Virus record (IMG/VR): IMGVR_UViG_2684622926_000002
Location: 8,159 to 72,158 of that record
Strand: one strand, 5' to 3'
Source: a virus
Taxonomy: Duplodnaviria > Caudoviricetes
DNA: 64,000 nucleotides
This document shows, piece by piece, positions 37,157 through 56,097 of this stretch (its first letter is position 1; each line of letters starts with the position of its first letter). The translations under genes and the position numbers were made by a program. Under the pieces are notes generated by a model. That model worked only from the letters and a program-made list of their open reading frames with translations. It had not been told where the DNA came from and did not search any database.

Positions 37157-37861
37157 CTAGGATAATTTTGCAGCAGTAGGAAAACCACCAAATGGTAGAA
37201 TACCGTATTGGCCATGACGAAGTTTACAACCAGTTAAACATCGGCTACATTTATCTTTAGTGATGTCGTTTGTTGGTTTGTCGAACTCATCCGCTACTGC
37301 ACCGCCTGTATAACCACATTCCGACGAGCGATATATCCAATTGCAAGTGTTAGCAACAATGACACGAGCCGGAATTAATGCACCGTCGGACTCGCATGGC
37401 AATGCTAATTCAAATGTAACAACCATTGAATTTTGTTGTTTTACCTGCTCAATCACATAATTTGAGATAATTTCGCAAAACGGATCGGCATATTGATTAC
37501 CGTTCTCAAAATTCACCGCATCTAGATATTTGACAGGCACTTCATGACGGGTGACAATTGCACCAAGTAAACCGTCAAAATCAGCAATTAGACCATTGAT
37601 AAAGCCCATCGCATTACTAACACTCATTGTTGGACGGTTACTCACACCCTGTCCATTCTTTTCAAAACCTTCAACTTTTATGGGATAAGGTTCATAGATA
37701 TTACATTGCCACGTTATCGGTCGTCTCAGCTCATTTAATCCATTGTGAAATCGAAATATAGTTTTGTTGCCGACAATTTTAGTTAAATCAACTTCATACA
37801 AATCAACAATCGCATCTTGTGCTATTTTAGTTATATCGAGTAGCATTTTTTGCGGTATCAT
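37157..37861 (-). CDS. Minor tail protein L
   Basis: Cys cluster NTCNWIYRSSECGY..DKCSRCLTGCKLR, FGGFP. Confidence 0.95.
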   Translation of the reverse strand: MIPQKMLLDITKIAQDAIVDLYEVDLTKIVGNKTIFRFHNGLNELRRPITWQCNIYEPYPIKVEGFEKNGQGVSNRPTMSVSNAMGFINGLIADFDGLLGAIVTRHEVPVKYLDAVNFENGNQYADPFCEIISNYVIEQVKQQNSMVVTFELALPCESDGALIPARVIVANTCNWIYRSSECGYTGGAVADEFDKPTNDITKDKCSRCLTGCKLRHGQYGILPFGGFPTAAKLS

Positions 37862-38202
37862 ACTACAACCTCCTCAAATGTTGCAGTAATTGATATTACT
37901 GTATGTTTAACATTTGTTGACCATGATGGACATTTAACTGTGATTAATCGATTGGTGTTTGGCTCTCGCCATTTGAAGGCATGAACACCACCATGCCGCG
38001 TTAGAAAGTCATCAATCATAGCAGCATCATCTCTAGGAACATTCAAACTTACGTCATATAAACGTAGATCGTTATTAATCCCATCTCTAACGCGTTGTTC
38101 GTAACCATCACCAAATTTGATAAGTTTGACCCTTGGTTCAGCTTTAACTGTTAAACCTGGAGCAAGCTCCCAACTGAATGTTTCCATATTTTCTCCAGAC
38201 AA
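37858..38202 (-). CDS. Minor tail protein M (distal tail)
   Basis: VKLIKFGDGYEQRVRDGINN..FLTRHGGVHAFKW. Confidence 0.95.
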   Translation of the reverse strand: MSGENMETFSWELAPGLTVKAEPRVKLIKFGDGYEQRVRDGINNDLRLYDVSLNVPRDDAAMIDDFLTRHGGVHAFKWREPNTNRLITVKCPSWSTNVKHTVISITATFEEVVV

Positions 38203-38344
38203 TAAAAAACCGCCAACAGGCGGTATGTGTGAATTTTAATTGTGAATTTTTAGTTACCTATACGGTATAAATCAATGATGTATTGTCGTCCTCTAGATTT
38301 CTAAACGACCTACACGGCAATGCTCCCCTCTAGGTACAACTTTA

Positions 38345-38851
38345 CTAGTTAAATTTTTTTATTTTCTCTAACAACGTTTCAAGTTCATTTACGTTTTTAT
38401 TTACTAGGGTTTCCATGATTGCAATGGGTAATTTTGAAATACCCTCACTATGCGCCATCACATAGTCAGCAGTTACACTCATTATGTCATCTTGAGCGAC
38501 TAAAACTAAACACACACCCGCAATTCTGGTTTCAGAGTGAATATTCTTGATATTTATTTCACCAGTCATGTCAATTATTGTTGCATAACTTTTGAACGCA
38601 TCATCACCAAGGTTTTTATATTTTTCTATTAATTTGTATTTGTTTATATCTTCACGTGAAATTTTCCCGATAGTACTTTGGCTATTATCCTTTATGATTA
38701 ATCCATTCATTTGTTGTGTGAAATAATAAGGGGTTGACTTGCATATGTCAGCTAAATATGTAGATATATCATTTTCGGTTAAATTCGAATTTGCGCTAAC
38801 TAGAAAAGGGAAAAACAATAAACAAAACAAAATCCTTTTCATACTTTCCAT
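38345..38851 (-). CDS. Moron: predicted secreted/periplasmic protein
   Basis: Signal peptide MKRILFCLLFFPFLVSA; followed by a terminator-like aaaaaccgcc..ggcggt at ~38205-38225. Confidence 0.7.
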   Translation of the reverse strand: MESMKRILFCLLFFPFLVSANSNLTENDISTYLADICKSTPYYFTQQMNGLIIKDNSQSTIGKISREDINKYKLIEKYKNLGDDAFKSYATIIDMTGEINIKNIHSETRIAGVCLVLVAQDDIMSVTADYVMAHSEGISKLPIAIMETLVNKNVNELETLLEKIKKFN

Positions 38852-39010: not shown

Positions 39011-39344
39011 CGGTTTATCCCTGTGTGTACAGGGAACACCTTTTCTAAAAATCGAATAATGTCATCTTTGTCGGTTTATCCCTGTGTATACAGGGAACAC
39101 AAAACCATTTCTAATAAGATATTCGATTGTCTCGGTTTATCCCTGTGTATACAGGGAACACACTCTGGGGATGTGGGTTGATAAAAACTCGAACGGTTTA
39201 TCCCTGTGTATACAGGGAACACATTAGTATTCTCATGGTTTGTGATACCTCTGCCGGTTTATCCCTGTGTATACAGGGAACACCTAGAGCTCCCATTTGA
39301 AATACTGATAAAACACGGTTTATCCCTGTGTATACAGGGAACAC
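39011..39344 (-). CRISPR. Type I-E-like CRISPR mini-array: 6 x 29-bp repeats (GTGTTCCCTGTATACACAGGGATAAACCG), 5 x 32-bp spacers; no cas genes in the window
   Basis: Repeats start at 39011, 39072, 39133, 39194, 39255 and 39316 (61-bp period); the leader-distal repeat carries one mismatch; palindromic CCCTGT..ACAGGG stem. Confidence 0.98.
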
Positions 39345-39470
39345 TTATTATAACTTATTGTTTATTAGTTAAAATACTAAGCGATAAATTTCCACCAACT
39401 TTTTTACTGTTTTTTTGCATGATTTTATTGAGATGTTTTTAGTGATTTATTATTAGCAAAATGACTCTAT
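39345..39470 (-). promoter_or_regulatory. CRISPR leader
   Basis: AT-rich; the minus strand has AAAGTTGGTGGAAATTT, resembling the enterobacterial I-E leader motif, ~45-60 bp from the first repeat. Confidence 0.75.
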
Positions 39471-39909
39471 TTTTTAGGTTATTTGCTTATGTAACTTGGC
39501 TATAAGCGGGTATCTGATCAAGTAAGCGATTTGACGAACCACATTTGCACGCCCTGTAATTCTTTAATGGTGACATTTTAACGCTGACGATTCTATTTTT
39601 TCTCGCAAATCATTCAACGGATTGATAGCAGTGGCTAATGTTTGTTTACAAATACTAAACAACTGTAACTCAATAGGGTCAAAATTCATCTCTATTATTG
39701 ATTAATCCCAGTGAATACAGGCAACACTGTTTTACGCCACTCGTCGCATCATAACTACGCCTTAAATTACTCAAAAGGAGATCTGGAGCACAAAACTGTA
39801 ACGAGATAGCGAACGTATTCTCTCATATGGGTATTGTGTTAGACGCATTCCCGATCTTATGATCGGGAAATAAAAGTTGGAGATCTACAATTAATTTAGT
39901 TGGTTATAT

Positions 39910-40473
39910 TTATCGTTTATACTCAAACTCTATATTCATTAAGGTTTTTATCTTGTCTATTAACGAATATTTTATCCCATGTTTATTCAATGTTAATTCA
40001 GCATAAATATAATCCAAGCTATCTTTTTTGTAATTATGTCCATCAATATCTATTTCTCCAATTTCATCAACTCTTGGTTCACGAGTGTTGTCAATATAAT
40101 ATTCGCATGAAGAATAACCGACTAAATCAACACCCATTCGGTTTTTGGATGAAAATTTAACCAAAGCAGTTGTGTTATAGAAATTTTTGGGATCATTATA
40201 CTTTTCTTTTAATGATGAATATATTCGATTTCTTGAAAAGTAATTATCAATTCTATCTTGGCTCCAGTTTTTCTTACTAGTCAAGGATAATTCTAGAATT
40301 TTATACGACGATGGCGCCACCATACGTTCTTTAGTTGCAAAGGAACATCTTTGCTTCAAGTCATATAAAAAAACATCATCATAGCTAACACTTTCATGTA
40401 CATATATTAAAAATGTTGATACTAATGTACCTACAACCAAAATTGATATGATAAACCATTTCATTCCATTCAT
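39910..40473 (-). CDS. Moron: membrane-anchored hypothetical protein
   Basis: N-terminal TM segment WFIISILVVGTLVSTFLIYV; lies between the tape measure gene and the CRISPR leader. Confidence 0.7.
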   Translation of the reverse strand: MNGMKWFIISILVVGTLVSTFLIYVHESVSYDDVFLYDLKQRCSFATKERMVAPSSYKILELSLTSKKNWSQDRIDNYFSRNRIYSSLKEKYNDPKNFYNTTALVKFSSKNRMGVDLVGYSSCEYYIDNTREPRVDEIGEIDIDGHNYKKDSLDYIYAELTLNKHGIKYSLIDKIKTLMNIEFEYKR

Positions 40474-40522: not shown

Positions 40523-43500
40523 TCAACGACGATTTAATTTACCACCAGGTCGCATTTGTTCGTCTAGTATTGATAACACTGATTGTTTTATCATTATACC
40601 GATTTCTTTGCCGTCTTCCTCGCTAATATCACCTCCGCCAACATTGACTGGTACATTTACAGTAATACTGCCGCCAGATGATTTAGATGCATCAAGGAAA
40701 TTTTTTAAATCAGCATTTGTGCGCGCATCAACAACTCTCTCGCCTTTATCGAGTAACCAAGTTCCTTCGCGAGGAATACTATCGATACCACTATGCGCCA
40801 TACCTGAAATGGTTTGAGCTGCAATCAATCCGACTGAAGCATAACCTAATCCTCTGATCCAACTTGCAGCGGAAATACCAAAAATAGGGCCAAGTTCAAG
40901 CGCTTTTGATGCTGCAACTTCTGTACTAATAATAGCTTGAGCAATAGCAGAAGCCTTACTAGCTAAAAACATCACTTTATATGCAGCTGATGATTCACCA
41001 GCTGTTTGTTTGAACATATCAGCAATTGAACCAGTTAGTGTTGAAAATGTACCTAACGCCGCCATTGTATATACAGATTGCAACTCTTGTTGCTTATTCT
41101 GCATAGTTTCCTCGATGCTCAAAACTGCGTCAGCATATTCTTGATGATTTATTAACTTAGCATTTAGCAAATCAGTTTGAATTGCTAACTGTTGTTGCTG
41201 CCAATCTTTGAGGTTTTTTTCATCTTCAGCAACTTTGATTAGCTCACTACCTGGTCCATTATAAGAATTTTGAATACTTAACGTAGGCGCTGATTGAACC
41301 ATTTTTTGATTCATTTTTTTAAGCAACTCTTCACGTTCTTGCAAGGAAACGTTACTTTTTTCAAGAACTGACAGATTTTGTTTGTAACTATCAAATTGTT
41401 GTTCGGTAGGACTACGCATTGAATCAAGAATAGATTTGTATTCTTTTTGGGCATTAAGTTGATCAATCTCAATGGCTTTATTTTCTAAAGCTTTTTTTTG
41501 CTCACCAGATAATACTTTTAATTCACCCTCTGCTAATTGGCGTCGGATTTTTTGAAGTTCAGTGATATCTTTATAGGCATTAATTTGATCGTTAAGTTTT
41601 CCAAGTTGGGATTGATAAAGATTAGTTGGATTTTTATCCAAACTACTACGCTTTAGCTTCTCTTGTTCTTGATAAGACTTTCGTAACTTCTCAATGTACT
41701 CTTTCAATTTTTCAGCTAATTCATCTGACATTTCTGCTGATAGTTCCTGATTGGTCACTAAAGCAATAAGGTCTTCTGAATGTGCCAATGCTGCATTACC
41801 CGCTGCTTTTTGTAAACCGGCTAATATGTAAACCTGTTCCGCGGATAATCCTGTTTTTTGACTGTTTGTTTCTAGATCTTGGTTTAATATACGAAGTTGG
41901 TAACCGAGGTTTGGAAAATCTGCTACGTCAAGCTTTTTAAGACCTCCAGCCGTTTCCTCTGACGCTTTTTTAGTGGCATCTATCTTTATTTTGGTTTCTG
42001 CTAGTGCTGCTATATTTTGCAATAACGAGCCTGTTATTGTGTTAAGAAGGTTTGTGAACTGTTCTCCACCACCCGTTGCATTAATTAAACTTATACCTGC
42101 TTCATTAATTCCCTCTCCGAACTCTTTTGAGGTAATTTCCCCCTCTATAACTTTATTTTTTAACACCTCAATTTGATTAATATATTTAGCTATTGCATTT
42201 TCATTTTCTGGCGAGATGTACGGTGAAAAACTTGAATAATCAAATGACGGTATTAGCTCTGTTAATTTGTCAGTTAATATTTTTTTAATTTCTGATACGT
42301 CGCTATTAACAGCTTTTACATTGACTTTAATTTCCGCGTCAAGTCCTGCTCTAATGTTACCTTGACGTGCTTTATCAAGTTCTTTGTATTTTGCAATCAA
42401 TTGATCAACAGGTAATTGTAGCTCTTCGATTGGTTTTTTAGCACTATTCGCGCCATCTCTCATTGAGAAAAAAGCTGTCCCAACAGCTATGGCTGTCATC
42501 GCTAATCCTAATGGGCCACCAAGTACTCCTAACAAGGTACTACCGGCACGAGTTAAAATAGTCATTGCGCTACTTGACAACTTAAGTCTCTCATTTGCTG
42601 CCCTAAGACCATTTTTAGCCTGCGTTTCCCTTTCAGTTAGAGCAATTTCTTGAGCTTCAAGTGCTAAGACAGCTCTTCGTACATATATGCTAGAACTAAT
42701 ACCGGAAATATTTTGCAATCTAGCAATTGCCGCCTGTTTGGTGCTTGCAATAGATTGTTTTTCAACTGCTATTTTTTGCAGCTCAGACTCAGCAAGATGT
42801 TTTTGAGCTAATGCTAGATTTCTGGTTTTATTAATTTGATCTACTATTTGAACTGAAACTTTTTTTAATGATGTATATGCACCATTTAGATAATTGCTAA
42901 ATTTGGCCGATACAACTGCTGCTCCAGCAACGGAAACTAATCCAATATTATCAGCTAAAATTTTTAAAGCCTTCGATATATTATTAGTTAATCCAAGACT
43001 ATTATTTAATTCGTTGACTAATTGTCCAAAATCATTAGATATTGCATTAAAGCCACCTTGAAGCGTATCACCCATGGCATCTGCCATTTTACCCGTTTTA
43101 TCTTTGGCGTTAATCATCGCATCAGAAAGTTGACGCATTGAAATTTCACCAGACATACCGAGTTGGATAATGGTAGCTTCAGATTCTCCCATGGAGTCAG
43201 ATAATGCAGTAGCAACATTAGATGTTGATGACAATATTGTTTTAAAATCATCACCGCTTACTTTACCCGTAAGCAGTGATTCATTAATTGCTTTTATACT
43301 TGTCGATACGTCAGTTGCTGATGTCGCATTTATTTTATAACTATTTGACATCGCCTCGATAAAATCGACCGTTTCATTAGTACTGTAACCTAAATCAGAC
43401 ATTGATGAAGCAGTCGCAATATATAACTTTTGGGAATCTGAAATCGCTTTACCATTTCTGTTACTTATTGCAAGTAACCTGTCTTGAACTAATTGATAAT

Positions 43501-43843
43501 CATCAGCAGATCCACCAACTGAATCTATTGCCATTTTGACGCGATTGGCCATTTGCCCATAGTCATCGGCCATTTTCAAAATACCAGTAATTGAAAAATC
43601 AACTCCAAGTGTTTTGGTCATCTCGGAGGCTGAAATTTTTAACTTACTTAAATGCGCATTGATTGCTTGAATTGATTTCTTATTGTTAGCAATGTGTTGA
43701 TCAAAACGCCGTGAATATTTCTCCATTGTTTTGTAATAATCATTACCAAGACGGGTTGCTCTTTTAATTTCTCGTTGATACGATTCTGAATTTGCACTGA
43801 GTCGTATCACCAATTCTCGCGGTATAGCCATATTATTTTCCAA
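40523..43843 (-). CDS. Tail tape measure protein (likely start at 43831)
   Basis: RELVIRLSANS N-terminus, tape-measure domain, C-terminal GMAHSGIDSIPREGTWLLDKGERVVD. Confidence 0.95.
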   Translation of the reverse strand: MENNMAIPRELVIRLSANSESYQREIKRATRLGNDYYKTMEKYSRRFDQHIANNKKSIQAINAHLSKLKISASEMTKTLGVDFSITGILKMADDYGQMANRVKMAIDSVGGSADDYQLVQDRLLAISNRNGKAISDSQKLYIATASSMSDLGYSTNETVDFIEAMSNSYKINATSATDVSTSIKAINESLLTGKVSGDDFKTILSSTSNVATALSDSMGESEATIIQLGMSGEISMRQLSDAMINAKDKTGKMADAMGDTLQGGFNAISNDFGQLVNELNNSLGLTNNISKALKILADNIGLVSVAGAAVVSAKFSNYLNGAYTSLKKVSVQIVDQINKTRNLALAQKHLAESELQKIAVEKQSIASTKQAAIARLQNISGISSSIYVRRAVLALEAQEIALTERETQAKNGLRAANERLKLSSSAMTILTRAGSTLLGVLGGPLGLAMTAIAVGTAFFSMRDGANSAKKPIEELQLPVDQLIAKYKELDKARQGNIRAGLDAEIKVNVKAVNSDVSEIKKILTDKLTELIPSFDYSSFSPYISPENENAIAKYINQIEVLKNKVIEGEITSKEFGEGINEAGISLINATGGGEQFTNLLNTITGSLLQNIAALAETKIKIDATKKASEETAGGLKKLDVADFPNLGYQLRILNQDLETNSQKTGLSAEQVYILAGLQKAAGNAALAHSEDLIALVTNQELSAEMSDELAEKLKEYIEKLRKSYQEQEKLKRSSLDKNPTNLYQSQLGKLNDQINAYKDITELQKIRRQLAEGELKVLSGEQKKALENKAIEIDQLNAQKEYKSILDSMRSPTEQQFDSYKQNLSVLEKSNVSLQEREELLKKMNQKMVQSAPTLSIQNSYNGPGSELIKVAEDEKNLKDWQQQQLAIQTDLLNAKLINHQEYADAVLSIEETMQNKQQELQSVYTMAALGTFSTLTGSIADMFKQTAGESSAAYKVMFLASKASAIAQAIISTEVAASKALELGPIFGISAASWIRGLGYASVGLIAAQTISGMAHSGIDSIPREGTWLLDKGERVVDARTNADLKNFLDASKSSGGSITVNVPVNVGGGDISEEDGKEIGIMIKQSVLSILDEQMRPGGKLNRR

Positions 43844-44135
43844 TTAAGTTAGATAATGCGTCGAATAAAGTGACTGGTTGCTTTTTCTCTTCTCTAAATT
43901 TAATTAAACAGTCGTCGAAAGAGACTTTTCCACCTTGTGAGCGGTATATAGATGAAGAAATTTGAGCTGCATGCCAGTCATTTCGCTCGTCACTGATAGG
44001 ATTTAATTTATCAAATGCGACCCAGTAGTAAAATTCACTAGCTGAAAGTGATTGCTCAAGTTCAGCTAGTGTTTTACCAAGCCTTAATGCTAGCTTTAAT
44101 TTAAAGAAAAGCTCTGGTTCATTTTCTACTTTTTT
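43833..44135 (-). CDS. Tail assembly chaperone T segment, reached by -1 frameshift from G
   Basis: Slippery A AAA AAG at 44129-44135 before the G stop; -1 frame reads VENEPELFFKLKLALRLGKTLAEL..SEFYYWVAFD..DWHAAQI..LIGK*. Confidence 0.88.
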   Translation of the reverse strand, partial: KKVENEPELFFKLKLALRLGKTLAELEQSLSASEFYYWVAFDKLNPISDERNDWHAAQISSSIYRSQGGKVSFDDCLIKFREEKKQPVTLFDALSNLIGK

Positions 44136-44509
44136 TCAGCCTCTTTGAGAGGATCGTTATTTAACTCTATCAATTCGAGGGCTTTATTCAGTACTCGAGT
44201 ATGAACAGGACCATAACTTTCTACTAACGCCTCCATTTCTTTACTGTCATTACTATTGAAAATAAGATTACCGTTTTTATCAATTACGGTTGCAGCAAAT
44301 AATAAAGTTTCAGCTTTGATATTAAGTAAGTCTTTTTCTTGCTCAGTTAATGAGTCATCTTTTGACGTTTTTTCAATGGATTTTACATAACGATAAAAAT
44401 CAATATGTAACGGTTCTCGAACACAAATTGTTGTATTCCATTCTGCCACCTGAAACTCTTTAGTGCGAAAGCCTGAATTTTTAGCAGTGATAATTTTCTT
44501 TAAATTCAT
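44126..44509 (-). CDS. Tail assembly chaperone G
   Basis: Sits between tail tube and tape measure genes; ends in a slippery heptamer. Confidence 0.88.
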   Translation of the reverse strand: MNLKKIITAKNSGFRTKEFQVAEWNTTICVREPLHIDFYRYVKSIEKTSKDDSLTEQEKDLLNIKAETLLFAATVIDKNGNLIFNSNDSKEMEALVESYGPVHTRVLNKALELIELNNDPLKEAEKK

Positions 44510-44529: not shown

Positions 44530-45000
44530 TTAATTAGCTGGAGTCGGTTCATTAAACACAAATGAGCCTTTTACTTTGAATGCGAATGAACCAGTTAAAA
44601 TGCCATTCTTTTCACCTTTAAACTCAAAATTGGTAACACGCGCAATCCAGTCAACAGAACTACCATCCTCATGTTGGATTTTAAATGCGTAATTATTACC
44701 TGACTCATAGGATTCTCTTAAAGCTTTTTGACCATCATTTGCAATAACAAAATTAACGTTCATTGATACAGTTGGTTCAGCCGGTAATCCACTAATGGTT
44801 TCTTTGGTACGAGATGAAAGTGTTGAGACATCAATCTCTTCACCTTCTGGTGATGTCATGGAATAGTCGGTTACCGTACACTCTAAACTTAATTTTGGGG
44901 TGGTATCAGTGATGAATTTTGTTGAAGGATCTTTACTAATAAATACACCGATATCTCTAGTTTTGGTATATTCGCTTTGTGATTTTTGTACTTCAGTCAT
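44530..45000 (-). CDS. Major tail (tube) protein
   Basis: EGEEIDVSTLSSRTKETISGLP..GQKALRESYESG..LTGSFAFKVKG. Confidence 0.9.
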   Translation of the reverse strand: MTEVQKSQSEYTKTRDIGVFISKDPSTKFITDTTPKLSLECTVTDYSMTSPEGEEIDVSTLSSRTKETISGLPAEPTVSMNVNFVIANDGQKALRESYESGNNYAFKIQHEDGSSVDWIARVTNFEFKGEKNGILTGSFAFKVKGSFVFNEPTPAN

Positions 45001-45059
45001 GTTAGTTTCTCCAAAAATAAAAAAAACCGCAATTAAGCGGCAAATAGGTTAATTTTTAC

Positions 45060-45150
45060 TTACTGATTATTAAAGGTATAGCTCTTATGATGCTCGATAG
45101 AGTTATATATTTAATTCGTAGTTAGGGTGACTTTTAACATTGAAATGTTT
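45060..45150 (-). pseudogene. Possible 3' remnant of a tail terminator gene
   Basis: NYELNI*LYRAS*ELYL* resembles the YExxTxLYRAxLEf ending of tail terminators, in the expected position. Confidence 0.4.
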
Positions 45151-45287
45151 CAATTGTTATTAGTATATTATTGCATCTATGTTTCCTATAGATTAAAAAT
45201 CTATAAATATCATTATGCAAATCAAATAGTTAAATTATATAAACATGGTTTATTTGTATAGAGTAAAAGTTAAAAACTAAGCTCAAT

Positions 45288-45545
45288 TTAATTGATTACG
45301 CTAATTATTTTTTTTATTGCCCTTTTATCTTGATTGCACATCTCAATAACATTCAAGAGATGCTCGTTATAGCTAACACTATCGCCGAATGTCATTTTTT
45401 GTGGTGGTAAATTTGCTATGCAATCACTGAGCAGATTTGCTGGAATTGGCTGATTCACGTAAACTTTTCGCTCGGTTGTACAGGCTACCAGAGATAGACA
45501 TAGGCACGAACTGATTAGCGCAATCATTATATTTAAGTTGTTCAT
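45288..45545 (-). CDS. Rz1-like outer-membrane spanin lipoprotein
   Basis: Lipobox LVAC, PIPANLLSDC..C..D motif; overlaps Rz. Confidence 0.88.
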   Translation of the reverse strand: MNNLNIMIALISSCLCLSLVACTTERKVYVNQPIPANLLSDCIANLPPQKMTFGDSVSYNEHLLNVIEMCNQDKRAIKKIISVIN

Positions 45546-46232: not shown

Positions 46233-46540
46233 TAGTTATCTCCTTTGGCTTTTTTAATCAGTCTTTCTTCCAGCGCTTTAATCAGTGTTGCGCCCGACCA
46301 ACCTGCTAACCCAGCTATACCGCCTGCTAGTTCAAAATCCCAGTTAAAATAACTAGCAGCAAGAACCACAAGAGAACCAGCAAAAGTTGATACACATATC
46401 TGACCTATCAACGTACCAACTCTGAATTTACCACCATTTATAACATGATAAGAATAGCTTGCTAATGAACCGAGCGAAGTAATAATAAATAGGTATACAA
46501 CAACCGTCCAGTTGACGTTGTTTGGGTCTTTTATTGGCAT
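46232..46540 (-). CDS. Holin (LydA-like)
   Basis: MPIKDP start, three hydrophobic segments, AGLAGWSG. Confidence 0.88.
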   Translation of the reverse strand: MPIKDPNNVNWTVVVYLFIITSLGSLASYSYHVINGGKFRVGTLIGQICVSTFAGSLVVLAASYFNWDFELAGGIAGLAGWSGATLIKALEERLIKKAKGDN

Positions 46541-47707
46541 GATAAAATCTTTATGTTAGTTAATAGAAATGACAGCGTGCTAGCTAAGCATTGGTTGGTT
46601 GTGTGTGTCTAGCGTTGCTGTCGATGCTGTAGCTCTTCACTAAGGTATCTAGTTTTGACTATGTCAAAAATTAGTAAAAGTGATGAGAGAAACTTTATTT
46701 AAAATAGATAATTAGCGAAAATATAGTGTCTACCATGAATTAAAATTAAGGTTAATTGTCTATAAACAAGCATAAAAAAACCGCAATTAAGCGGTTAATC
46801 TAGCATTTTGAATTAGTTATTTTTCCCTAAAAAAATAATCAATTACAAATTGTATCGTTAAGTTAGTTATAACTCTTTTATAATTAAGATTTTAAATGTA
46901 AACAAATTGATGCATTATCTTTTCTTTATTAGAGAGTCATAGAAAAAAAGTGCTAAAAATTCAAAAAATGCAGCATCGCCACTATAAAAGAGGTAGTGAT
47001 AATCAGTTAAATTATTGAGCCTCTATTCCGAAAAATAGATATAAAAGAACAGATTGATAACAAAATAAATCATCAAAAAAACAATTACATATTGTTAATC
47101 TTTTCATTTTATTTTTATTTAAAAATATATTCTCACCTTCAAAAGATAAGTACTTATCCCATCTCTTAAATTGATTATACGGTATTCAATATTTGAAAAT
47201 ATTACTCAACGCGAAAAAATAGAGCGCTAACTTTCAATATCTCGATTCAGTTAGATTTATTTGCTATATAATCGATAACTCTTTTATAGAATCTTAGACT
47301 AAATTTATATTAAATCTTTAGTTAAAATAATCCCTAACTGGAATTATAAAGTTAACTAGATAATTTTTAGCATTATTTAAGTTTTACGAATACAGTTATA
47401 AAAATTATACAAAAGATGAGCAAGGTAATTTTTTAAGAAATCTATTTCATTAACAACTAAAAATAATTAAATTATTTTTGATTAAGCGTTTGAGCTTTAT
47501 TATAAGTTAACTCACAATGATAACCATCAATAGAACGCTGATAAGCTACTATCGACCTAATACTAGGACTTAAAGAGAAGTAAAATAACAGGTAAAATAC
47601 GCATTTTAATTCTGCTACTTTGATAAGCTCGCCAATATTCAATAGTAGAAATAAAATATAAATCATTGAATAAAATTAAAAAAAGATTGTATATTTAAAA
47701 AATCAAG

Positions 47708-47905
47708 GTGAATAGTATGGCGTTAACTAGAACTGAAATTAATGAGCGTAGTAACGAAAAACGTGGTATAAAAAATAAAGCATTTAAATTAAATATAAAC
47801 GATATAGCAATGATTAAACAAACTGCTATAGATTTAAATATGTCAGAAGCAAAACTAGTAGTAGAAGCTATTAAATTCTATAAAGACAATAAAAAAGCCT
47901 CATAA
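47708..47905 (+). CDS. Small ribbon-helix-helix-like phage protein
   Basis: KAFKLNINDIAMIKQTAIDLNMSEAKLVVEAIKFY; duplicated at 54553. Confidence 0.65.
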   Translation: MNSMALTRTEINERSNEKRGIKNKAFKLNINDIAMIKQTAIDLNMSEAKLVVEAIKFYKDNKKAS

Positions 47906-48118
47906 GAGGCTTTCTTGGTAATTCAATATTGAACGTTGTTCTTGTAGAGTGATTTCATTTAGATGTTTTCTTGGGTTACCACACATCCAACAAGAACAAG
48001 CTGCGGGTGTTACTACATGTCTTTTTAGAGCCTTTCTTGAAGTAGCACCATAAAAGTCATTCTTTCTATTATCTAAACATCGTTTAATCTGATGTCGTCT
48101 ATATGCTCTTGTTCTCAT
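47900..48118 (-). CDS. Small conserved phage protein (CSCWMCGNPRK)
   Basis: Duplicated at 54745. Confidence 0.65.
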   Translation of the reverse strand: MRTRAYRRHQIKRCLDNRKNDFYGATSRKALKRHVVTPAACSCWMCGNPRKHLNEITLQEQRSILNYQESLL

Positions 48119-48239
48119 ATTTTTCTAATTAACTAACAAGTTAGATAATAAAAAAGCTCTTTTTTAGAGCTTTATATACAACTATTCCATTCTGTGTGCT
48201 TTATACCACACCTCTCTTAAGAAATCAACTTTTTTATAA

Positions 48240-48581
48240 AAATTTATTTTTTAACATCTCTAATTCAATTCCGGATCTGCTTTTTATTGCGGCAAACTAC
48301 CCTGTTAAAAAATCCTCACCACTTTTTTGAGTTTATCAATTGCATTCCAATTGGTTTTAAATTTTTTGGCAATATCAACAGTGGTAATGGTTTAACCATG
48401 TAGAGTTTCTCCTCTCTGATACCTCGGGCAATTTTTTAAAAATTGGCAAATCATCAAAACCTTGCGCTTGTCTTTTCCTTCCGCTTTAACACAGCCAGCC
48501 ACAGCTATATAGTCAGTAACCTCTTGTTTTTTTCACCCAATAATAGAGTATCAAGGTATTATATATATCTTTGGATTGAGG
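48240..48581 (-). pseudogene. Truncated, frameshifted antiterminator Q copy
   Basis: Matches the C-terminal half of 55079-55696. Confidence 0.88.
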
Positions 48582-48742
48582 CATTTTCAGCGATAAGATA
48601 GTCAGATGTAGGCATCTGCATTGGTAAAATTTGAATTTTCGTGTACTTGTTAATGGCGTCGCCTACAAGATTAAAAATAAAAAACAACCAATTGATTAGT
48701 AGGGTTAAAAAATAAAATAAAAATACCGTAAAAAATACTGTT

Positions 48743-50533
48743 TTATTTATTGGTATACCAACATTCAAATCGAGTAATTTCAACGCGCATCGTTTTAGCC
48801 TCACCTTTATCGATTCTTCGGTAAACATTGCCCGCAACACCTGAGGTAACAGGCTCTACGTTAGGTAAAACTCTCTCAAATGACATTGTTGCGATTGCAC
48901 CTTCGCTTTCTATTTGTATATTCGCGTAACCTCGATTGTCAATGAATGACGTTAAACTTACACTATACCGCGAGTCCGATTTTTTAATATTTAGATAGCC
49001 CACTTTTTCATAGCGATTAACATTATTTAAAGTATCAAATGTATGTATATATATTGATATGTATCCAGAGAAAAAATACAACATAATGCCGTTAATGGTG
49101 TTCTTATATCTACCAGGTGCTTGACATAAGAACACACCCGAACCGTCATCGAAAAGCCCTTCTAGTATAATATGAGTATTTTTATCTCGAGTGAACAGTT
49201 GTACAACGTTCTCTCCGTATCTATCGTAAATATCTGATGTGCGGCAAAAACTAGTTTCTATAAATGGTTCATCAGCCGGTGCAACTAGGTCTTGCTGATC
49301 CCTAAACGTTCTATAATTTTTTAGCAAATCTTTAGTTGTAAGTTTAGCTTGATAGTTCACAATAAAATCAAAATGACCAAAGAACACACTATTTGTCAGG
49401 CTCATATCTCCTATTAATTGAATTCTATTTAGCCCATATTTCAGATCTTTAATGTATTCTGGGGTATCCACCGCCGAGTACTCACCATACCACAACATCG
49501 AACCTACGATTTTTGATTCACTATTACCCGTTAGCACATCCGTTACTTTAATGCTCGATGTTCTGGCATCCCCCAACATCCGGCGGTAAACAATGGAAGC
49601 GTTAGGATGCTCACACCAAACCCAAATATCGAGCAGTACTTTGTTTTTGCAATCAAATTTTTGGGGATTAACATAAGGATTAACACCATATTTACAACTT
49701 GTTGTCGTAGATGAAGTATTAACACCTATAGGTGAATTACCCCTATCATCTAAAAAGTGTACGCTTTCATACGTGTTGCTGTCGTTAATTTTAACAATGC
49801 GATTATAAAATAGATTGGCAATCCAGCATGCCTGAAACGAATGTCCCAAATCCAACCAGTGTGTATTATCTGGTTGGAGATCTGCGTAGTTATACTCATT
49901 TGTATTTGACATCCACTTTTTCATCTCGGCGTCTAGGTCTAACAAGGGAATATTTCGAGTACACGCAATGTATCTTTTCATACTATTTATGCGTTCGATC
50001 TTAAAGGGTTTGCTATCCATATCCCCCGTTGATTTTAAACGGACAACGTTGCACGTCAATATAATAGGTAAGGCGCCAATCTTTTCTATTTTATCAATTA
50101 ATAAATTTGTTTGCTGTAATGTATCCGCCAATAAGTCTCCTTTGTTATGACCAGCATCGTTAATGCCAAATCCAAACATTACAATATCGACTTTGCCATA
50201 ATGGGGATTATTAGTTATCGCATTTTCAAAATTTTGCACTGCCCAACCGTCATCCAGTCGTTTACCTGAATACCCCGCGTTATAAACATGGATATTGTCA
50301 TTATTGTACATTGTCCGTAATATCGCTTGTAATATCACAGGCCAAGAATTTGGGGCATTATCGTTGTGATTTGTACCAAATTTATTTCGCGTCCATCCAG
50401 TAGTCGCATGCCCATCTGTTGTTGAATCACCATAACATGCGATTTTTACTGTTTGCCCCGCAGCCATCTGGGCAATCCAATAATTTAGTTTACCTTTGTT
50501 GTCGATTTCAAGTGGTGTGTTAAACTCTGACAT
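48743..50533 (-). CDS. SGNH/GDSL hydrolase-domain protein (tailspike-like acetylesterase)
   Basis: CYGDSTTDG, NAGYSG, FGINDA and PDNTHW catalytic blocks, plus a long beta-rich C-terminus. Confidence 0.82.
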   Translation of the reverse strand: MSEFNTPLEIDNKGKLNYWIAQMAAGQTVKIACYGDSTTDGHATTGWTRNKFGTNHNDNAPNSWPVILQAILRTMYNNDNIHVYNAGYSGKRLDDGWAVQNFENAITNNPHYGKVDIVMFGFGINDAGHNKGDLLADTLQQTNLLIDKIEKIGALPIILTCNVVRLKSTGDMDSKPFKIERINSMKRYIACTRNIPLLDLDAEMKKWMSNTNEYNYADLQPDNTHWLDLGHSFQACWIANLFYNRIVKINDSNTYESVHFLDDRGNSPIGVNTSSTTTSCKYGVNPYVNPQKFDCKNKVLLDIWVWCEHPNASIVYRRMLGDARTSSIKVTDVLTGNSESKIVGSMLWYGEYSAVDTPEYIKDLKYGLNRIQLIGDMSLTNSVFFGHFDFIVNYQAKLTTKDLLKNYRTFRDQQDLVAPADEPFIETSFCRTSDIYDRYGENVVQLFTRDKNTHIILEGLFDDGSGVFLCQAPGRYKNTINGIMLYFFSGYISIYIHTFDTLNNVNRYEKVGYLNIKKSDSRYSVSLTSFIDNRGYANIQIESEGAIATMSFERVLPNVEPVTSGVAGNVYRRIDKGEAKTMRVEITRFECWYTNK

Positions 50534-50869
50534 TTTTACCTCGTTAGGATTTTATTATAGTACTTAATTTATTAATTATTTGAAAAATAAAGATAAAGAA
50601 CAAATTAAATACCGTAAAATTTTTTGAATTTATTCGATCTGTTTCTCAATCTTTTTATATTAGAATAATGCCCGACGATTACGATTTAGAATTAGCAGGC
50701 GATAAGCTACATAATTAACAGTCACGACGATCATAACTACGTTTTCTATCAAAATGATGATGACATGTTTGATATCGCCGATTTTGTGATGTTGTCTGAT
50801 GTTGTCTGATGTTGTTGAGTATTGAAGATTGAAGTTCGTTGCGATGATTGTTAACTCAATTCTGGTTTT

Positions 50870-51175
50870 GTTGGAAAAATAACATTGATATCCGATGCGT
50901 CTAATTTTTTTAGACTAATTCGATATAGTTTCCATTTTTTTAACATTGTTACATCTTTATCAGTCGCCTGGTCGAACTCTATTTTATCGATGAGTATATC
51001 TATTTCGTTGTTAGCTTCATTCAATAACGATTCTTTAATTTGCTGATTTTGAAAATTATTTGCTCGTCCGTAAACCCCATTGTTTCAGGATTAACAAGAA
51101 CTAATTTACCATTTTCACATTTTAACTCTTTCCCCTTTTTATTAGCTTTAATAGCCATTTCATCTGCCATATTAC
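50870..51175 (-). pseudogene. Tfa-like remnant (paralog of 29765-30097)
   Basis: EMAIKANKKGKELKCENGKL..DEQIIF, frameshifted; ..KKWKLYRISLKKLDASDINVIFPTKP. Confidence 0.82.
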
Positions 51176-51199
51176 ATATTAACTGTAGTTTCGGTTTTC

Positions 51200-51672
51200 T
51201 CTTTAAATACCTGAACACTCACGTGTTTACTTAACAATTCAAGATTCTTGACTTTGTCTGGTATTTTATTTTTTTCATAAGTGCTTCCGTGTCCCCAATT
51301 CCGATAATGGCAATATCTAAACCTGATAATGTGGTCCTCTATGTTCTCGGCCATTCTTTCATGGGGAGGAAATCACCTGAATGAGCGAGGATGTCCAAGA
51401 TGTCCATTTGGTCTATTTCAACTAATCGCTTTAGCACATAGTCAGCATCTATTTTGTTACGTTTATCGTGCTGTTGTTTAGGTTCTTAGATATAATTTTG
51501 AACTGAAGTTTTTTGAAGTAATTGGTAAGATAATTGTGCGGACGTCTTTTGACTATATCCTGCTGACTATATCCTGCTGACTATATCCTGCTCGGATTGC
51601 TGCTTGTGTCGTATTGAGATCTACTAAATAGCCACGACAAAACAGCTCATGTTTGTCGGTGAGCTTTGTCAT
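51200..51672 (-). pseudogene. Terminase small subunit pseudogene
   Basis: MTKLTDKHELFCRGYLVDLNTTQAAIRAGYS..IDADYVLKRLVEIDQMDILDIL; a 14-bp triplication at 51551-51592 and stop codons. Confidence 0.88.
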
Positions 51673-52022
51673 ATTTATACCTTTAGTTAATTTTTTAGAT
51701 AATAAAAAACCGCCAGACGGCGGTTCGGTGAATTAATTACTCATGCCTTATAACAAACAGAGCTTCAGCAAAAGTCGCTAACATAAACCTTTCGGGCTTA
51801 CTTTCTGCTTGGTCAATGATTCGTTGTAATTGCTCCTCTGCATCATCAGGAAGTGGCTCGGTATTAATCAGTTTAGTCGCTTGCTCAACTAATGAATCAA
51901 ACTTATTCATTTAATGCCCTTATCTAACGCATTATTCATTGGCCTGTAACCATTCAGATAGTTGACTTGGGTGACCTATTTTTTTCTTATCACCCTTTTT
52001 CATAATCTTTCCTTTAATTAAC

Positions 52023-54053
52023 TTAAATATACATGATTGCAGGTATTTTTCTTTCTCCTTCACCTAAACTAGGGTTATTTATAATTTTCCCTTTGTACCA
52101 CAATGATGCACTACCACCGCCATCAAGATTAAACGCATGAATGCAACCAAGATCTTTCATTTTTCTAGCTACTTGCTCCATTGTACAACCAGCAAATCCA
52201 GATTTACCATCAACAGCAAGCAAAATATAACTTCCATCTTTTTTCTGTCCTAAACACATTCTAGCGGATAAATATCCAACCCAACCATTATAATCTAACA
52301 ATTTATTTGGAACTGGATCATATACCTCACCATCTACAACAAGTGGGGCTCGAAATATTGCTGTTTGCCATGCGTTTTCAGCAATACTAGCTGAGGCAAT
52401 CATCAAAGGGTTATTGGAACTATAACTAGGTGTTGAAAAATCGCGACATGTTAAGCTATTGTATCTATCAATGACAAGCATGCTGCGTGCCCACCAAAAG
52501 TTTTCTGTTCCATATGTATCATATACAGTTCCATTGACGACGATATCACCAAGTTTTTTACTTGGAACATGCCAAGCACTGCTATTCCATGCTAAGGTTG
52601 CATTATCAATAGATTTCATCCAGTCAGATAGTGTTTTAAAATCGTTAGTATTAGCTGCTTGTTGTATTTTTCGATAATCATTGACTCGAAATTCAATAAG
52701 GTATGAGGTTGCCTCATTTAGATCTGAATCATGCTCTTTTATAATTGGCTCTGAAATATAATCATTGATTGACGGTTTAATAATATTTAATTTTTGTTCA
52801 TTATAAATATTTGTTACATCAGCAGAAGAATCATTTCTAATGGTTTTTATTTCTCCAGGGGCATAAAATTCATTGTTAAAGTATTGGCCATTTGTTACCT
52901 CTTTACTAAACCATAATAATCCTGTATTTGTTTGTGTAACGTCTGTGTAAAATTTATTATTAAAAACAGAAATACTATCAGTGTATTCAATTTTTATACC
53001 TGATGATAAACAATGAAAACTACAATCATGTATTCGCCAGAATTTACTTGGGTAGGTATTTCCTCTTGTTTGTGCATTTAAATTGGCATTACCAATAATA
53101 ATTGCATAACCTGTTTTAACAGCTCGATCAAATACACAATTGAATAAATCAACATTAACACATCCGGTTGCCCTAATATTACAAGCTTTTTCGTTAGAAG
53201 TTAGATTTGAATTGTGAACTTTTACATCAGTACATGCCTCTAATTTTATAGTATCTGTTATGGTACTGGCTGTAATATTATTAATCATAAGACCATTACA
53301 AAAGTATGCTCTAATCCCGCCATGCTTTAACATCTCCTTATCACGCAATGAACCTGTAATAACCAAATTATCTAAAATTATTTTAGATAATCTTGCGGTA
53401 CTCGTACCAATTAAAGATATACTAGAAGCGACACAATTTGCTATACGGGTATTGAGGATACGAATTTCACTAGCAGCAAATGACATTGTTGGTTCAATAT
53501 AAATCCCATTTAGGAACTCTTGAAATTCACAATTGTCGATTAATACGTGATTAGCATTTAGAACAGTTAATCCATTGAATGCTCGACTCTTAATCGAAGT
53601 AAATTTACAACAACGAATAGAATATCCACTTGTTATCGTCCGCGATTGACCAATTTGCAGGCTCGAATGTAAAAAATTCACACCGTTTAACGCAACCGGA
53701 GTATAGATTTGTTCATTATCTTTTGGCGCAAGTTTCACTACCAGATTATTAAATGTTACATTTGAAACATTCATTCTACGCCCAATATAAAAAACCACAT
53801 TAGGAGAAAGATCTCCATTGTCAGGAGCCTTAAAAGAAACAGCGCCTGTAGAAATAAATTCTCTTTTTAATTCAATATCTGACGAAATAGTATAAGTGCC
53901 GCTCGGGAATAATAAAATTCCACCATTTTTATACGTTTCATCAATTGCTTTAGTAATGGCTAAGGTGTCATCCTGTAGCCCATCCCCTACGGCTCCGAAC
54001 TCTTTAACTGAAAAAATATTTGATTTTTTATCATACTCTTGCGATGAATTCAT
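52023..54053 (-). CDS. Beta-helix (pectate-lyase-like) plus C-terminal phosphodiester glycosidase (NAGPA-like) protein; depolymerase-like
   Basis: SVKEFGAVGDGLQDDT..FPSGTY N-terminus; ARMCLGQ..LLAVDG..AFNLDGGGS C-terminus. Confidence 0.85.
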   Translation of the reverse strand: MNSSQEYDKKSNIFSVKEFGAVGDGLQDDTLAITKAIDETYKNGGILLFPSGTYTISSDIELKREFISTGAVSFKAPDNGDLSPNVVFYIGRRMNVSNVTFNNLVVKLAPKDNEQIYTPVALNGVNFLHSSLQIGQSRTITSGYSIRCCKFTSIKSRAFNGLTVLNANHVLIDNCEFQEFLNGIYIEPTMSFAASEIRILNTRIANCVASSISLIGTSTARLSKIILDNLVITGSLRDKEMLKHGGIRAYFCNGLMINNITASTITDTIKLEACTDVKVHNSNLTSNEKACNIRATGCVNVDLFNCVFDRAVKTGYAIIIGNANLNAQTRGNTYPSKFWRIHDCSFHCLSSGIKIEYTDSISVFNNKFYTDVTQTNTGLLWFSKEVTNGQYFNNEFYAPGEIKTIRNDSSADVTNIYNEQKLNIIKPSINDYISEPIIKEHDSDLNEATSYLIEFRVNDYRKIQQAANTNDFKTLSDWMKSIDNATLAWNSSAWHVPSKKLGDIVVNGTVYDTYGTENFWWARSMLVIDRYNSLTCRDFSTPSYSSNNPLMIASASIAENAWQTAIFRAPLVVDGEVYDPVPNKLLDYNGWVGYLSARMCLGQKKDGSYILLAVDGKSGFAGCTMEQVARKMKDLGCIHAFNLDGGGSASLWYKGKIINNPSLGEGERKIPAIMYI

Positions 54054-54064
54054 TTAATTATCTC

Positions 54065-54470
54065 CTTAATAGCCTTTTTAATTTGATTACACATTTCAAT
54101 AACATTGAATAAATGCTCCTTGTATCTGATGCTATCGCCGAACGTCATTTTTTGTGGCGGTAAATTTGCTATGCAATTACTGAGCAGATTTGCTGGAATT
54201 GGCTGATTCACGTAGACTTTTCACTTGGTTGTACAGGCTACCAGAGATAGACATAGGCACGAACTGACTAGCACAGTCATTATTTTTGAGTTGTTCTTGG
54301 ATCTGCTCCTGACGTGAAATAGATTGATTTTCTAGCTCACGTTTTGATTGTTCGTAGCGGCAATAATCTGATTATTTCACTCGATAGTTTGCTGTAATTG
54401 TTGCATCTGTGGAGATAATTCAGTCATTTTCTGTTTTGCAGTTTGTTCATCTTCAAAACATTGATAAGCT
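54065..54470 (-). pseudogene. Second, broken Rz/Rz1 copy
   Basis: Near-identical to 45290-45715 with indels and a TGA in Rz1. Confidence 0.88.
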
Positions 54471-54552
54471 CGCCGGCATTCTATAGTAGTTTAAATTTTA
54501 GGTAACCTATTAAATAACCTTAAAAAAATGATTGTAGATTTAAAAAATCAAG

Positions 54553-54750
54553 GTGAATAACATGGCACTAACAAGAGTTCAAATTAATCAAAAAAGTGAC
54601 GAAAAGCGAGGAGTTAAAACAAAAGGTTTTAAATTAAATATAAACGATATAGCAATGATTAAACAAACTGCTATAGATTTAAATATGTCGGAAGCAAAGC
54701 TAGTAGTAGAAGCTATTAAGTTCTATAAAGACAATAAAAAAGCCTCATAA
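54553..54750 (+). CDS. Small ribbon-helix-helix-like phage protein (copy 2)
   Basis: Paralog of 47708-47905. Confidence 0.65.
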   Translation: MNNMALTRVQINQKSDEKRGVKTKGFKLNINDIAMIKQTAIDLNMSEAKLVVEAIKFYKDNKKAS

Positions 54751-54963
54751 GAGGCCTTCTTGGTAATTCAATATTGAACGTTGTTCTTGTAGAGTGATTT
54801 CATTTAGATGTTTTCTTGGGTTACCACACATCCAACAAGAACAAGCTGCGGGTGTTACTACATGCCTTTTTAGAGCCTTTCTTGAAGTAGCACCATAAAA
54901 GTCATTCTTTCTATTATCTAAACATCGTTTAATCTGATGTCGTCTATATGCTCTTGTTCTCAT
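54745..54963 (-). CDS. Small conserved phage protein (copy 2)
   Basis: Paralog of 47900-48118. Confidence 0.65.
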   Translation of the reverse strand: MRTRAYRRHQIKRCLDNRKNDFYGATSRKALKRHVVTPAACSCWMCGNPRKHLNEITLQEQRSILNYQEGLL

Positions 54964-55078
54964 ATTTTTCTAATTAACTAGCAAGTTAGATAATAAAAAA
55001 GCTCTTTTTCAGAGCTTTATATACAACTATTCCATTCTGTGTACTTTATACCACACCTCTCTTAAGAAATCAATTTTT

Positions 55079-55696
55079 TTATAAAAATTTATTTTTCAAC
55101 ATCTCTAATTCAATCCCGGAACTGCTTTTTATTGCGGCAAAATACCCTGTTAAAAAATCCTCACCACTTTTTTTCAGTTTATCAATTGCATTCCAATTGG
55201 TTTTAAATCTTTTGGCAATATCAACAATCGATAATGGTTTAACCATGTAGAGTTTCTCCTCTCTGATACCTCGGGCAATTTTTTTAGAATTTGGCAAATC
55301 ATGAAAACCTTGCGCTTGTCTTTTCCATTCCTCTTTAACACAGCCATCCACAGCTATATAGTCAGTAACCTCTTGTTTTTCACCCCAATAATAGAGTATC
55401 AAGGTATTATATATATCTTTGGATTGAGGTATGTTCAAAGATAAGATAGCCAAAAGTGCATCGTTAATTAGCATTGCATCATTATCAGAACAGACTTCTT
55501 TAAGTTTTTTTGGCTGTGAATGGTAATATAATAGTGTATTTTGTTTTAAATAAAGGTTTTTTCTTGACCAATTGCCAAAACGCATACATACATCAGTAAT
55601 ATCATAATCAGCTTTAAATCTCACTTTTGCGATCGACTTATCCGCTGTTTTTGGTTTTTCATCTTCTTTATATTTATACTCTGTCACTATTTTCAC
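55079..55696 (-). CDS. Late antiterminator Q
   Basis: DITDVCMRFGNW..CSDNDAMLIN..LILYY..SIVDIAKRF..GEDFLTG; lies upstream of the lysis region. Confidence 0.8.
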   Translation of the reverse strand: MKIVTEYKYKEDEKPKTADKSIAKVRFKADYDITDVCMRFGNWSRKNLYLKQNTLLYYHSQPKKLKEVCSDNDAMLINDALLAILSLNIPQSKDIYNTLILYYWGEKQEVTDYIAVDGCVKEEWKRQAQGFHDLPNSKKIARGIREEKLYMVKPLSIVDIAKRFKTNWNAIDKLKKSGEDFLTGYFAAIKSSSGIELEMLKNKFL

Positions 55697-56097
55697 CCTT
55701 AAAATTTTTCAAGTTCCTGACACTACTCTGTTTTTAATTCGATATTTAGTTCGCTTTTTAATTACTAGGAACGTAAATGGTTAAATATCAGCGATGATTG
55801 CTATTGTTACTCTTACGTCAGCTGTTCAATGTCCTTTTACTGCTGCGGATCAATCACCCCCACCTTTATTAATCACCATAAAATCAATAAATTATGCCTC
55901 CCTGTCAGCTTAAATGATTTTTAATTTCACAAACTTAAACCGTTATTCCATTTGCTCGCTGTGACTTTTTTAAATATTGGGAAAACTGGAAATCAATTCC
56001 GAGCATCCTCCCTGGCTATATTTGCTTCTCGCATAGTGGATGTCTTGGCAGAGATCACGCTATTTTGTTTAGTAGGCGATTCTGACCTGAGCGGTGA

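Follow-up and report, generated by a model that had tools for sequence, protein, structure and literature searches.

Genetic Context of the Array

The locus analyzed here belongs to a lambdoid prophage of the bee-gut bacterium Gilliamella and lies in a stretch of 64,000 nt, which is hereafter called the window. All genes around the array are located on the minus strand. In the order of transcription they encode the major tail protein, the tail assembly chaperone, the tape measure protein (TMP) and ORF187; then come the leader and the array, ORF168, a terminator-like hairpin and the gene of the minor tail protein gpM (Table 1). After gpM the operon continues with gpL, gpK, gpI, gpJ, a fibre gene and a fibre assembly gene. 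The genes of a holin, an endolysin and Rz (46540-45424) are located upstream of the tail genes, and farther upstream there are fibre- and spike-like genes, a Q-like gene, DnaB and a divergent gene of a LexA-type repressor (58816-59460). The first-pass annotation of this DNA had described a cas-less type I-E array of six repeats and five spacers, preceded by a leader, between the TMP and gpM genes and co-oriented with the tail operon. This description was accurate: the gene flanks are those reported, and both the array and the operon are read on the minus strand.

The two cargo genes that flank the array belong to no Pfam or PADLOC family. ORF187 matches only phrog_20018, a family of unknown function, and is also found between TMP and M in relatives that have no array; the Atlas look-alikes of ORF168 all score below 0.8. 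Two 168-aa ORFs located beside arrays in genomes G014 and G004 were considered as homologues of ORF168 and rejected, the equal length being coincidental. The hairpin between ORF168 and gpM was recognized by a consensus match only, and chance alone would give one match of this kind over the region scanned; if real, it would close a moron-like unit composed of the leader, the array and ORF168.

The prophage contains a lysis cassette and a full flexible-tail operon (tube, chaperone, TMP, M, L, K, I, J and fibre) and has no head or packaging genes. Only about 420 bp separate Rz from the tube gene, compared to 8-9 kb in the relatives from genomes G017 and G003, and in one more relative (G030) the ORFs upstream of the tube gene resemble TerL, portal and capsid genes by size and order. 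Since the relatives have 8-9 kb at this place, we consider the element to be head-deleted, in agreement with the earlier description of a headless carrier. The same headless layout was seen only in a closely related element from genome G006 (95-99% nucleotide identity). At the same time, the carrier retains the phage repressor, replication and Q genes together with duplicated remnants of a second late region, and is closer in appearance to a prophage in decay than to a proven F-type tailocin.

Some other features of the window should be mentioned. The site of the missing head module corresponds to positions 45000-45424. The region 46540-55700 contains two nested late regions, in which a Q-like gene and an Rz remnant are followed by two intact spike- or fibre-like genes (52023-54053 and 48743-50533) and then by a truncated second Q gene and the intact lysis cassette; the same layout is present in G006. 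The first part of the window (1-29700) is AT-rich (25-35% GC), contains internal repeats and many small minus-strand ORFs without Pfam families, and is largely common to G006 at 97% identity.

Table 1. Position of the array, its parts and neighboring genes in the window, and of type I-F mini-arrays in other Gilliamella prophages.
Feature	Position	Strand	Remarks
Major tail protein	44530-45000	-	
Tail assembly chaperone	44126-44509	-	
Tape measure protein gene	40523..43843	-	upstream flank; PF20155, 1.2e-39
ORF187 cargo gene	39910..40473	-	N-terminal membrane anchor; phrog_20018
Solitary decayed repeat	39699..39727	-	6 mismatches, hairpin lost
Leader	39345..39480 (end approximate)	-	aligned with the leaders of C6a, C6b, C10 and G006
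Type I-E CRISPR array	39011..39344	-	6 repeats: 39011, 39072, 39133, 39194, 39255, 39316
Newest spacer	39284-39315	-	
Fourth spacer from old end	39223-39254	-	
Middle spacer	39162-39193	-	
Second-oldest spacer	39101-39132	-	
Oldest spacer	39040-39071	-	
ORF168 cargo gene	38345..38851	-	signal peptide; downstream side of the array, co-oriented
Terminator-like hairpin and T-run	38209..38224	-	between ORF168 and gpM; consensus match only
Minor tail protein gpM gene	37858..38202	-	downstream flank; PF05939, 9.6e-36
I-F mini-array, G. bombicola R-53248	L059:4812-4959		
I-F mini-array, G. apis NO3	L057:1417-1744		
I-F mini-array, Gilliamella sp. Choc5-1	L060:1945-2092		

Structure of the Array and Its Leader

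The array is composed of six 29-nt repeats that follow each other with an exact period of 61 nt and are separated by five 32-nt spacers, all of them different. No such repeats are expected by chance (0 in 100 shuffles). On the plus strand the repeat reads CGGTTTATCCCTGTGTATACAGGGAACAC; its crRNA-sense form, GTGTTCCCTGTATACACAGGGATAAACCG, is found on the minus strand and corresponds to the canonical orientation of type I-E repeats. Therefore, the leader should begin at position 39345 and extend to about 39480, and the old end of the array should be at 39011. The repeat folds into a 7-bp stem with a 4-nt loop (-10.5 kcal/mol, z = -3.2). As to the presence of a stem-loop and of the AUAAACCG 5' handle, we take the E. 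coli I-E repeat to be the comparison by which a repeat of this type is judged. The last eight nucleotides of the prophage repeat, ATAAACCG, are identical to those of the host chromosomal array C6a, which has the same 3' handle AUAAACCG.

Five of the six repeats are identical, and the copy at 39011 carries a single substitution in the loop. The distal repeat had been called degenerate in the first-pass annotation; it does differ from the other five, but only in the loop, and cannot be called decayed, since the same fold is kept. A 78-aa ORF on the plus strand (39206-39442) was discarded as a spurious frame running across the repeats. A search of the array against Rfam revealed no family at E <= 0.1; this result has little weight, as Rfam covers only some repeat families. 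We regard it as virtually certain that the locus is a genuine type I-E CRISPR array carried by a prophage.

The leader has a core of approximately 70 nt, located next to the first repeat, that is conserved among the prophage array and the host arrays C6a, C6b and C10, and its IHF-like site matches 12 of 13 positions. A promoter scan of this AT-rich leader found 12 sites compared to 12.8 expected in shuffled sequences, none of them above chance. The window copy lacks two base pairs (GA) at the junction of the leader and the first repeat (39345-39347), where it reads ...ATAATAA immediately before GTG; five other copies of the prophage array read ...ATAATAAGA before GTG, and all arrays of the host read ...AGA before the repeat. 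The deletion is unique to the window copy, which is also the shortest array of the set. Because of these two features, spacer uptake in this strain may be impaired, even if crRNA production is intact.

A solitary repeat was revealed about 355 bp upstream of the first repeat of the array. It ends with ...ATTAATCA, like the terminal repeats of chromosomal arrays of the genus, and folds at only -1.5 kcal/mol, with 186 of 200 shuffled sequences folding equally well or better. This unit and the approximately 230 bp that follow it correspond to the ends of chromosomal arrays from other Gilliamella, i.e., to their terminal repeat and trailer; in the window the trailer is formed with positions 39496-39698. 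This suggests that the cassette, composed of an array end, a trailer, a leader and the next array, was excised from a chromosomal multi-array locus.

The solitary repeat is of interest for one more reason. Repeat-like phage RNAs are able to inhibit type I-E and I-F systems (PMC10651486), and a lone repeat-like unit near the array, or the array itself, could act as a Racr-like RNA anti-CRISPR or titrate Cas6e and Cascade, thus shielding the prophage. However, the lone unit forms no hairpin and looks like the decayed terminal repeat of an array; since the whole cassette resembles the end of a chromosomal array followed by the next one, its reading as an RNA anti-CRISPR is disfavored. The spacers also bear on this explanation and are considered below.

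It should be mentioned that the host chromosome contains a fourth I-E array (G000:C10:126603-127654; L011:9604-10655) with seven repeats that differ by 1 nt from the prophage repeat and with the most similar leader. It adjoins queH and a remnant of an Rz-like spanin, and a 127-aa ORF of no known family stands between it and three decayed repeats. In other Gilliamella genomes (L029 and L031 in G014, L030 in G004, L032 in G006) we observed array islands, i.e., groups of many small I-E arrays and lone repeats interleaved with genes of PAAR-domain toxins (PAAR-DUF4225), an IS integrase and small ORFs of no known family. Some of these islands are tandem duplications of units composed of an array and a toxin gene.

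CRISPR-Cas Systems of the Host

The genome of the host strain (G000) is a 3.54-Mb draft of 31 contigs with a GC content of 34.5%. A tblastn search for cas homologues revealed none in the window nor on the whole 323-kb contig, so that the absence of cas genes near the array, noted earlier, extends to the entire contig. A single complete type I-E set (cas3/cse1/cse2/cas7/cas5/cas6e/cas1/cas2) is located on another contig, C6, where cas3 adjoins array C6a with 18 repeats and array C6b with 66 repeats comes after cas2. In this locus (G000:C6:13277-24620; L012) cas3 and the Cascade operon are divergently oriented and about 8.6 kb apart; the gap contains a yejABEF-like operon of a peptide/microcin ABC transporter and further ORFs.

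The prophage repeat differs from the C6a repeat in three nucleotides, two of which form a compensatory stem pair while the third is in the loop, and from the C6b repeat in five to six. The repeats of C6a and C6b differ from each other in seven to eight nucleotides, that is, more than the prophage repeat differs from either of them, and therefore the prophage repeat is within the range already served by the single Cas set of the host. Thus, the search for a compatible I-E system in the host, proposed in the first-pass annotation, gave a positive result. With a complete cas set, similar cas-adjacent repeats and a common leader core, the array would be able to borrow the host Cas proteins, as had been supposed. 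Cas6e is also present in G006, the host of the sibling element.

Besides the type I-E system, a complete-looking type I-F system flanked by two arrays was observed in the host chromosome (G000:C7:~244600-255000; L141). It comprises cas1, a cas2-3-sized ORF, three csy-sized ORFs and a cas6f-sized ORF, which were assigned by ORF size and order and by a weak Cas1 match.

Targets of the Spacers

The oldest spacer matches at 32 of 32 positions a head-tail adaptor gene (G006:C1:279489-279521) of a sheath-bearing, myovirus-type prophage, and its protospacer is preceded by a 5' AAG PAM. The same prophage is matched at 31 of 32 positions by a spacer of the chromosomal array C6b, and thus a phage of this myovirus type appears to be a real enemy of the lineage. 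The fourth spacer from the old end matches (29/32, also with a 5' AAG PAM) a virion structural gene (phrog_771) of a prophage from genome G035, where this gene adjoins a head-decoration gene. A third target was found for a spacer from one metagenome copy of the array; this target, matched at 28 of 32 positions and preceded by AAG, is a gene of portal size in an intact lambdoid relative from G030.

Each of the three protospacers lies within a head, portal or connector gene of another Gilliamella prophage and has the AAG PAM; by our own arithmetic, the probability of finding this PAM three times by chance is about 6e-6 at this base composition. The PAMs are on the side predicted by the orientation of the repeats, which independently confirms the minus-strand direction of the array. 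Thus, the supposition that the array is directed against competing elements was borne out for two of the five spacers in the window, both of which match other prophages next to an AAG PAM.

For the second-oldest, middle and newest spacers, no match with up to three mismatches was found in 49 Orbaceae genomes. When the whole array was compared with GenBank phages and PLSDB plasmids, all matches were at the chance level or confined to the repeats. In searches performed with N at every sixth position, none of the five spacers had a match in IMG/VR, nor had the newest and middle spacers in JGI metagenomes.

The genome of the host was also searched with the five spacers and gave only chance-level matches (the best at 19 of 21 positions, E = 0.83); the target genes have no homologue there. 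The idea that the array regulates host genes through partial matches is thus not favored.

The same data bear on a possible role of the array as a counter-defense decoy. The repeats of the array are canonical and are spaced by genuine phage-derived spacers with AAG PAMs, and the spacer sets are turned over between copies (see below). Moreover, the carrier is not targeted by any spacer of the host, and the prophage has therefore nothing to escape. We therefore consider titration of Cas proteins or RNA anti-CRISPR activity, both of which the first-pass annotation had allowed for, very unlikely.

Spacer Turnover Between Copies of the Array

A sibling of the element was found in G006, a MAG that represents another Gilliamella species. 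It is collinear with the window from 17.8 to 61.7 kb (~44 kb) at the 95-99% nucleotide identity mentioned above, and the ORF187, ORF168, gpM, gpL and gpK proteins of the two elements are 99-100% identical. The G006 array contains 14 repeats and 13 spacers, none of which is common to the window array. We also found metagenome contigs from independent assemblies in which ORF187 is 100% identical. In four of these contigs the sequence extends into the array, and the same leader is followed by further unrelated spacers (three more sets), with at least 14 spacers in one contig. In total, at least five unrelated spacer sets are located behind near-identical leader and flanking sequences, which is the result of the comparison between strains suggested in the first-pass annotation. 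Among 80 gpM-bearing loci from species-representative genomes, this I-E array is present only in the G006 sibling. To judge from these sequences, the array looks alive. Since so many spacer sets are found behind identical flanks, canonical adaptation, and not only recombination, probably acts on phage-borne arrays.

CRISPR arrays often break or become mis-joined in short-read assemblies. Given that the host genome is a draft of 31 contigs, it might be supposed that a piece of a chromosomal CRISPR locus was erroneously joined to the prophage contig. Against this, the same order of TMP, ORF187, leader, array, ORF168 and gpM is found in the independent G006 MAG and in several independent metagenome assemblies, and elsewhere in the genome neither this repeat variant nor any of the five spacers is present. 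The probability of such an artefact is practically negligible.

A more serious alternative is that the array is an inert passenger. In this case the phage would have acquired, by recombination, a fragment of a chromosomal multi-array locus that included the terminal repeat, the trailer, the leader and the array, and the fragment would have no function in its new place. The match of the decayed repeat and the following ~230 bp to the ends of chromosomal arrays in other Gilliamella agrees with such an origin, as do the orphan I-E arrays scattered across genomes of this genus. The carrier prophage is defective, the leader-repeat junction is damaged in the window copy, and spacer gain by recombination has been suggested for published phage mini-arrays (PMC6858448). 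However, an inert fragment does not account for the presence of five or more unrelated spacer sets in copies whose leaders are nearly identical and whose flanking genes are the same, nor for perfectly homogeneous repeats, nor for spacers that are PAM-selected, phage-targeting and never match the host genome. Capture from the chromosome would account for the origin of the cassette and is no argument against its function. For these reasons we consider that the array is improbable as a mere passenger, though this reading deserves more weight than the decoy.

A Cargo Slot in Gilliamella Prophages

Analysis of related elements revealed type I-F mini-arrays in three other Gilliamella lambdoid prophages (Table 1). 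They contain 3-6 repeats, have a leader-like upstream sequence and are located upstream of gpM. In G. bombicola R-53248 the slot holds, in order, TMP, two ORFs, the I-F array, a toxin-antitoxin pair and then gpM; in NO3 and Choc5-1 the array is likewise upstream of gpM, and no tape-measure match is present in the examined DNA. All three I-F arrays are co-oriented with gpM, and all three hosts encode Cas6f. The neighbors of these arrays include a P22-type antirepressor, a Gp49/HI1420 toxin-antitoxin pair and, in NO3, the Septu system (PtuA and PtuB). In relatives without arrays the slot holds ORF187 alone or other inserts.

Since the relatives carry such varied inserts in this place (arrays, Septu, toxin-antitoxin and antirepressor genes), the TMP-gpM slot can be regarded as a hot spot for defense and cargo genes. 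Host-matching CRISPR arrays have entered it at least twice.

Concerning the loss of the head module, we note that the identified spacers of the window array match head or connector genes, which the headless carrier lacks. One can speculate that CRISPR self-targeting selected for the deletion of the head module. A broader hypothesis, which we put forward tentatively and consider rather less than likely, is that the slot is a general home for updatable, host-matched arrays (type I-E in this lineage, type I-F in at least three other species), that phages spread immune memory in this way, and that self-targeting drove the head loss. If this reading of the slot is true, adaptive immune memory would be spread by phages between bee-gut strains.

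The speculation on self-targeting also draws on spacers of the host chromosome. They match intact relatives of the resident prophage (L049, L047) in the head module, exactly the part that the resident element has lost. A spacer of the host I-F system matches the head region of the G030 lambdoid relative at 32 of 32 positions (L049:7366-7397), and head-module matches were also obtained for a decayed spacer of array C10 (27/30) and for C6b spacers.

Proposed Function of the Array

Taking into account the sequence data described above, we propose that the array works with the Cas proteins of the host against rival phages, and estimate the probability of this reading at about 0.75. The array would be an accessory 'moron' cargo that settled in the slot between the tape measure and gpM genes of a lambdoid prophage, which later lost its head module. 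In the lysogen it would be transcribed on the minus strand from the leader and probably also by read-through from the late operon. The transcript would be cut into crRNAs by the host Cas6e, and the host Cascade and Cas3 would destroy incoming phages with a matching protospacer and an AAG PAM. New spacers would be added at the prophage-borne leader by the host Cas1-Cas2. The net effect would be a CRISPR-based exclusion of rival phages, to the benefit of both the prophage and the host.

We infer that transcription, processing, interference and acquisition take place, the latter in situ rather than by recombination; replacement of spacers by recombination with chromosomal arrays may nevertheless have played a part. 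Because the carrier is defective, the array may today serve the host only.

Comparison With Known Systems

Phage-borne arrays without cas genes are already known, and arrays beside the tape-measure gene of prophages have been documented (PMC4173771), so that the word 'unusual', applied to this array in the first-pass annotation, was an overstatement. What is new is the presence of type I-F mini-arrays in other Gilliamella prophages; our search of the literature found no report of prophage-borne CRISPR arrays in Gilliamella. The value of the present array lies in its I-E subtype, retained leader, natural spacer turnover and recurrent cargo slot, and in a carrier that does not have the genes matched by its spacers. 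Culturable Gilliamella strains with defined targets could provide a tractable system for studying how prophages spread immune memory between strains. For studies of the bee-gut virome it is important that prophage spacers can confuse CRISPR-based host assignment and the binning of arrays.

RNA anti-CRISPRs, or Racrs (Camara-Wilpert et al., 2023; PMC10651486), resemble the Gilliamella locus in that repeat-like sequences are carried by a prophage in a host with the matching CRISPR-Cas type. However, Racrs are single repeats that keep the hairpin and have no spacers, whereas the Gilliamella prophage contains a full array and its lone repeat has lost the hairpin.

Another parallel is found among isolated arrays moved by mobile elements, namely CRISPR3 of P. 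aeruginosa, a type I-F array with a leader like that of the cas-associated array, which is functional and has been horizontally transferred (PMC13142298). Both arrays are located far from cas genes, have a leader that nearly matches that of a cas-adjacent array, and are suggested to have originated by recombination from such a cas-adjacent array. CRISPR3 belongs to type I-F, is located outside a phage structural operon, and its interference and adaptation have been shown experimentally, while the function of the Gilliamella array is deduced from comparative data.

The closest bacterial counterparts are found in the phiC2-like prophages of C. difficile, which contain two to four cas-less type I-B arrays with 7-24 spacers in the structural region from xkdN to the tape measure gene (Hargreaves et al., 2014; PMC4173771). 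The spacer content of these arrays diverges between prophages and targets other phages (PMC4173771), and their function was studied by Boudry et al. (2015; PMC4556805). Like them, the Gilliamella array has no cas genes, is located in the tail module beside the tape-measure gene, contains several to many spacers and relies on the host for the supply of Cas proteins; in both cases the spacers diverge between related prophages and target phages of the same host genus. The differences concern the subtype (I-E and not I-B), the gammaproteobacterial host, the lambdoid siphovirus-type tail and the exact position, which in Gilliamella is downstream of TMP, between TMP and gpM, while in C. difficile it is between xkdN and TMP. 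In addition, the Gilliamella prophage has one array instead of two to four and has no head module. Expression has been demonstrated for the C. difficile arrays, while the Gilliamella array is known from its sequence.

Finally, in the viruses SPV1 and SPV2 of Sulfolobales, mini-arrays with a leader occupy the same position but differ in their spacers, and a role in CRISPR-based superinfection exclusion was proposed for them; the mini-arrays of bacterial phages described up to then lacked leaders (Medvedeva et al., 2019; PMC6858448). The Gilliamella arrays share with them a host-like leader, the absence of cas genes, the same position in sibling elements with different spacers, and the targeting of other viruses. 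The archaeal arrays belong to type I, have only one or two spacers and target close siblings reciprocally, whereas the Gilliamella arrays contain from 5 to at least 14 spacers and target a myovirus prophage, another prophage and, in one metagenome copy, an intact lambdoid relative. The array described here provides a clear natural example of a host-type leader retained in a bacterial prophage array. Most of the documented cases of this phenomenon come from Clostridioides and archaeal viruses, and the present data add type I-E and, in sister prophages, type I-F from a bee-gut symbiont.
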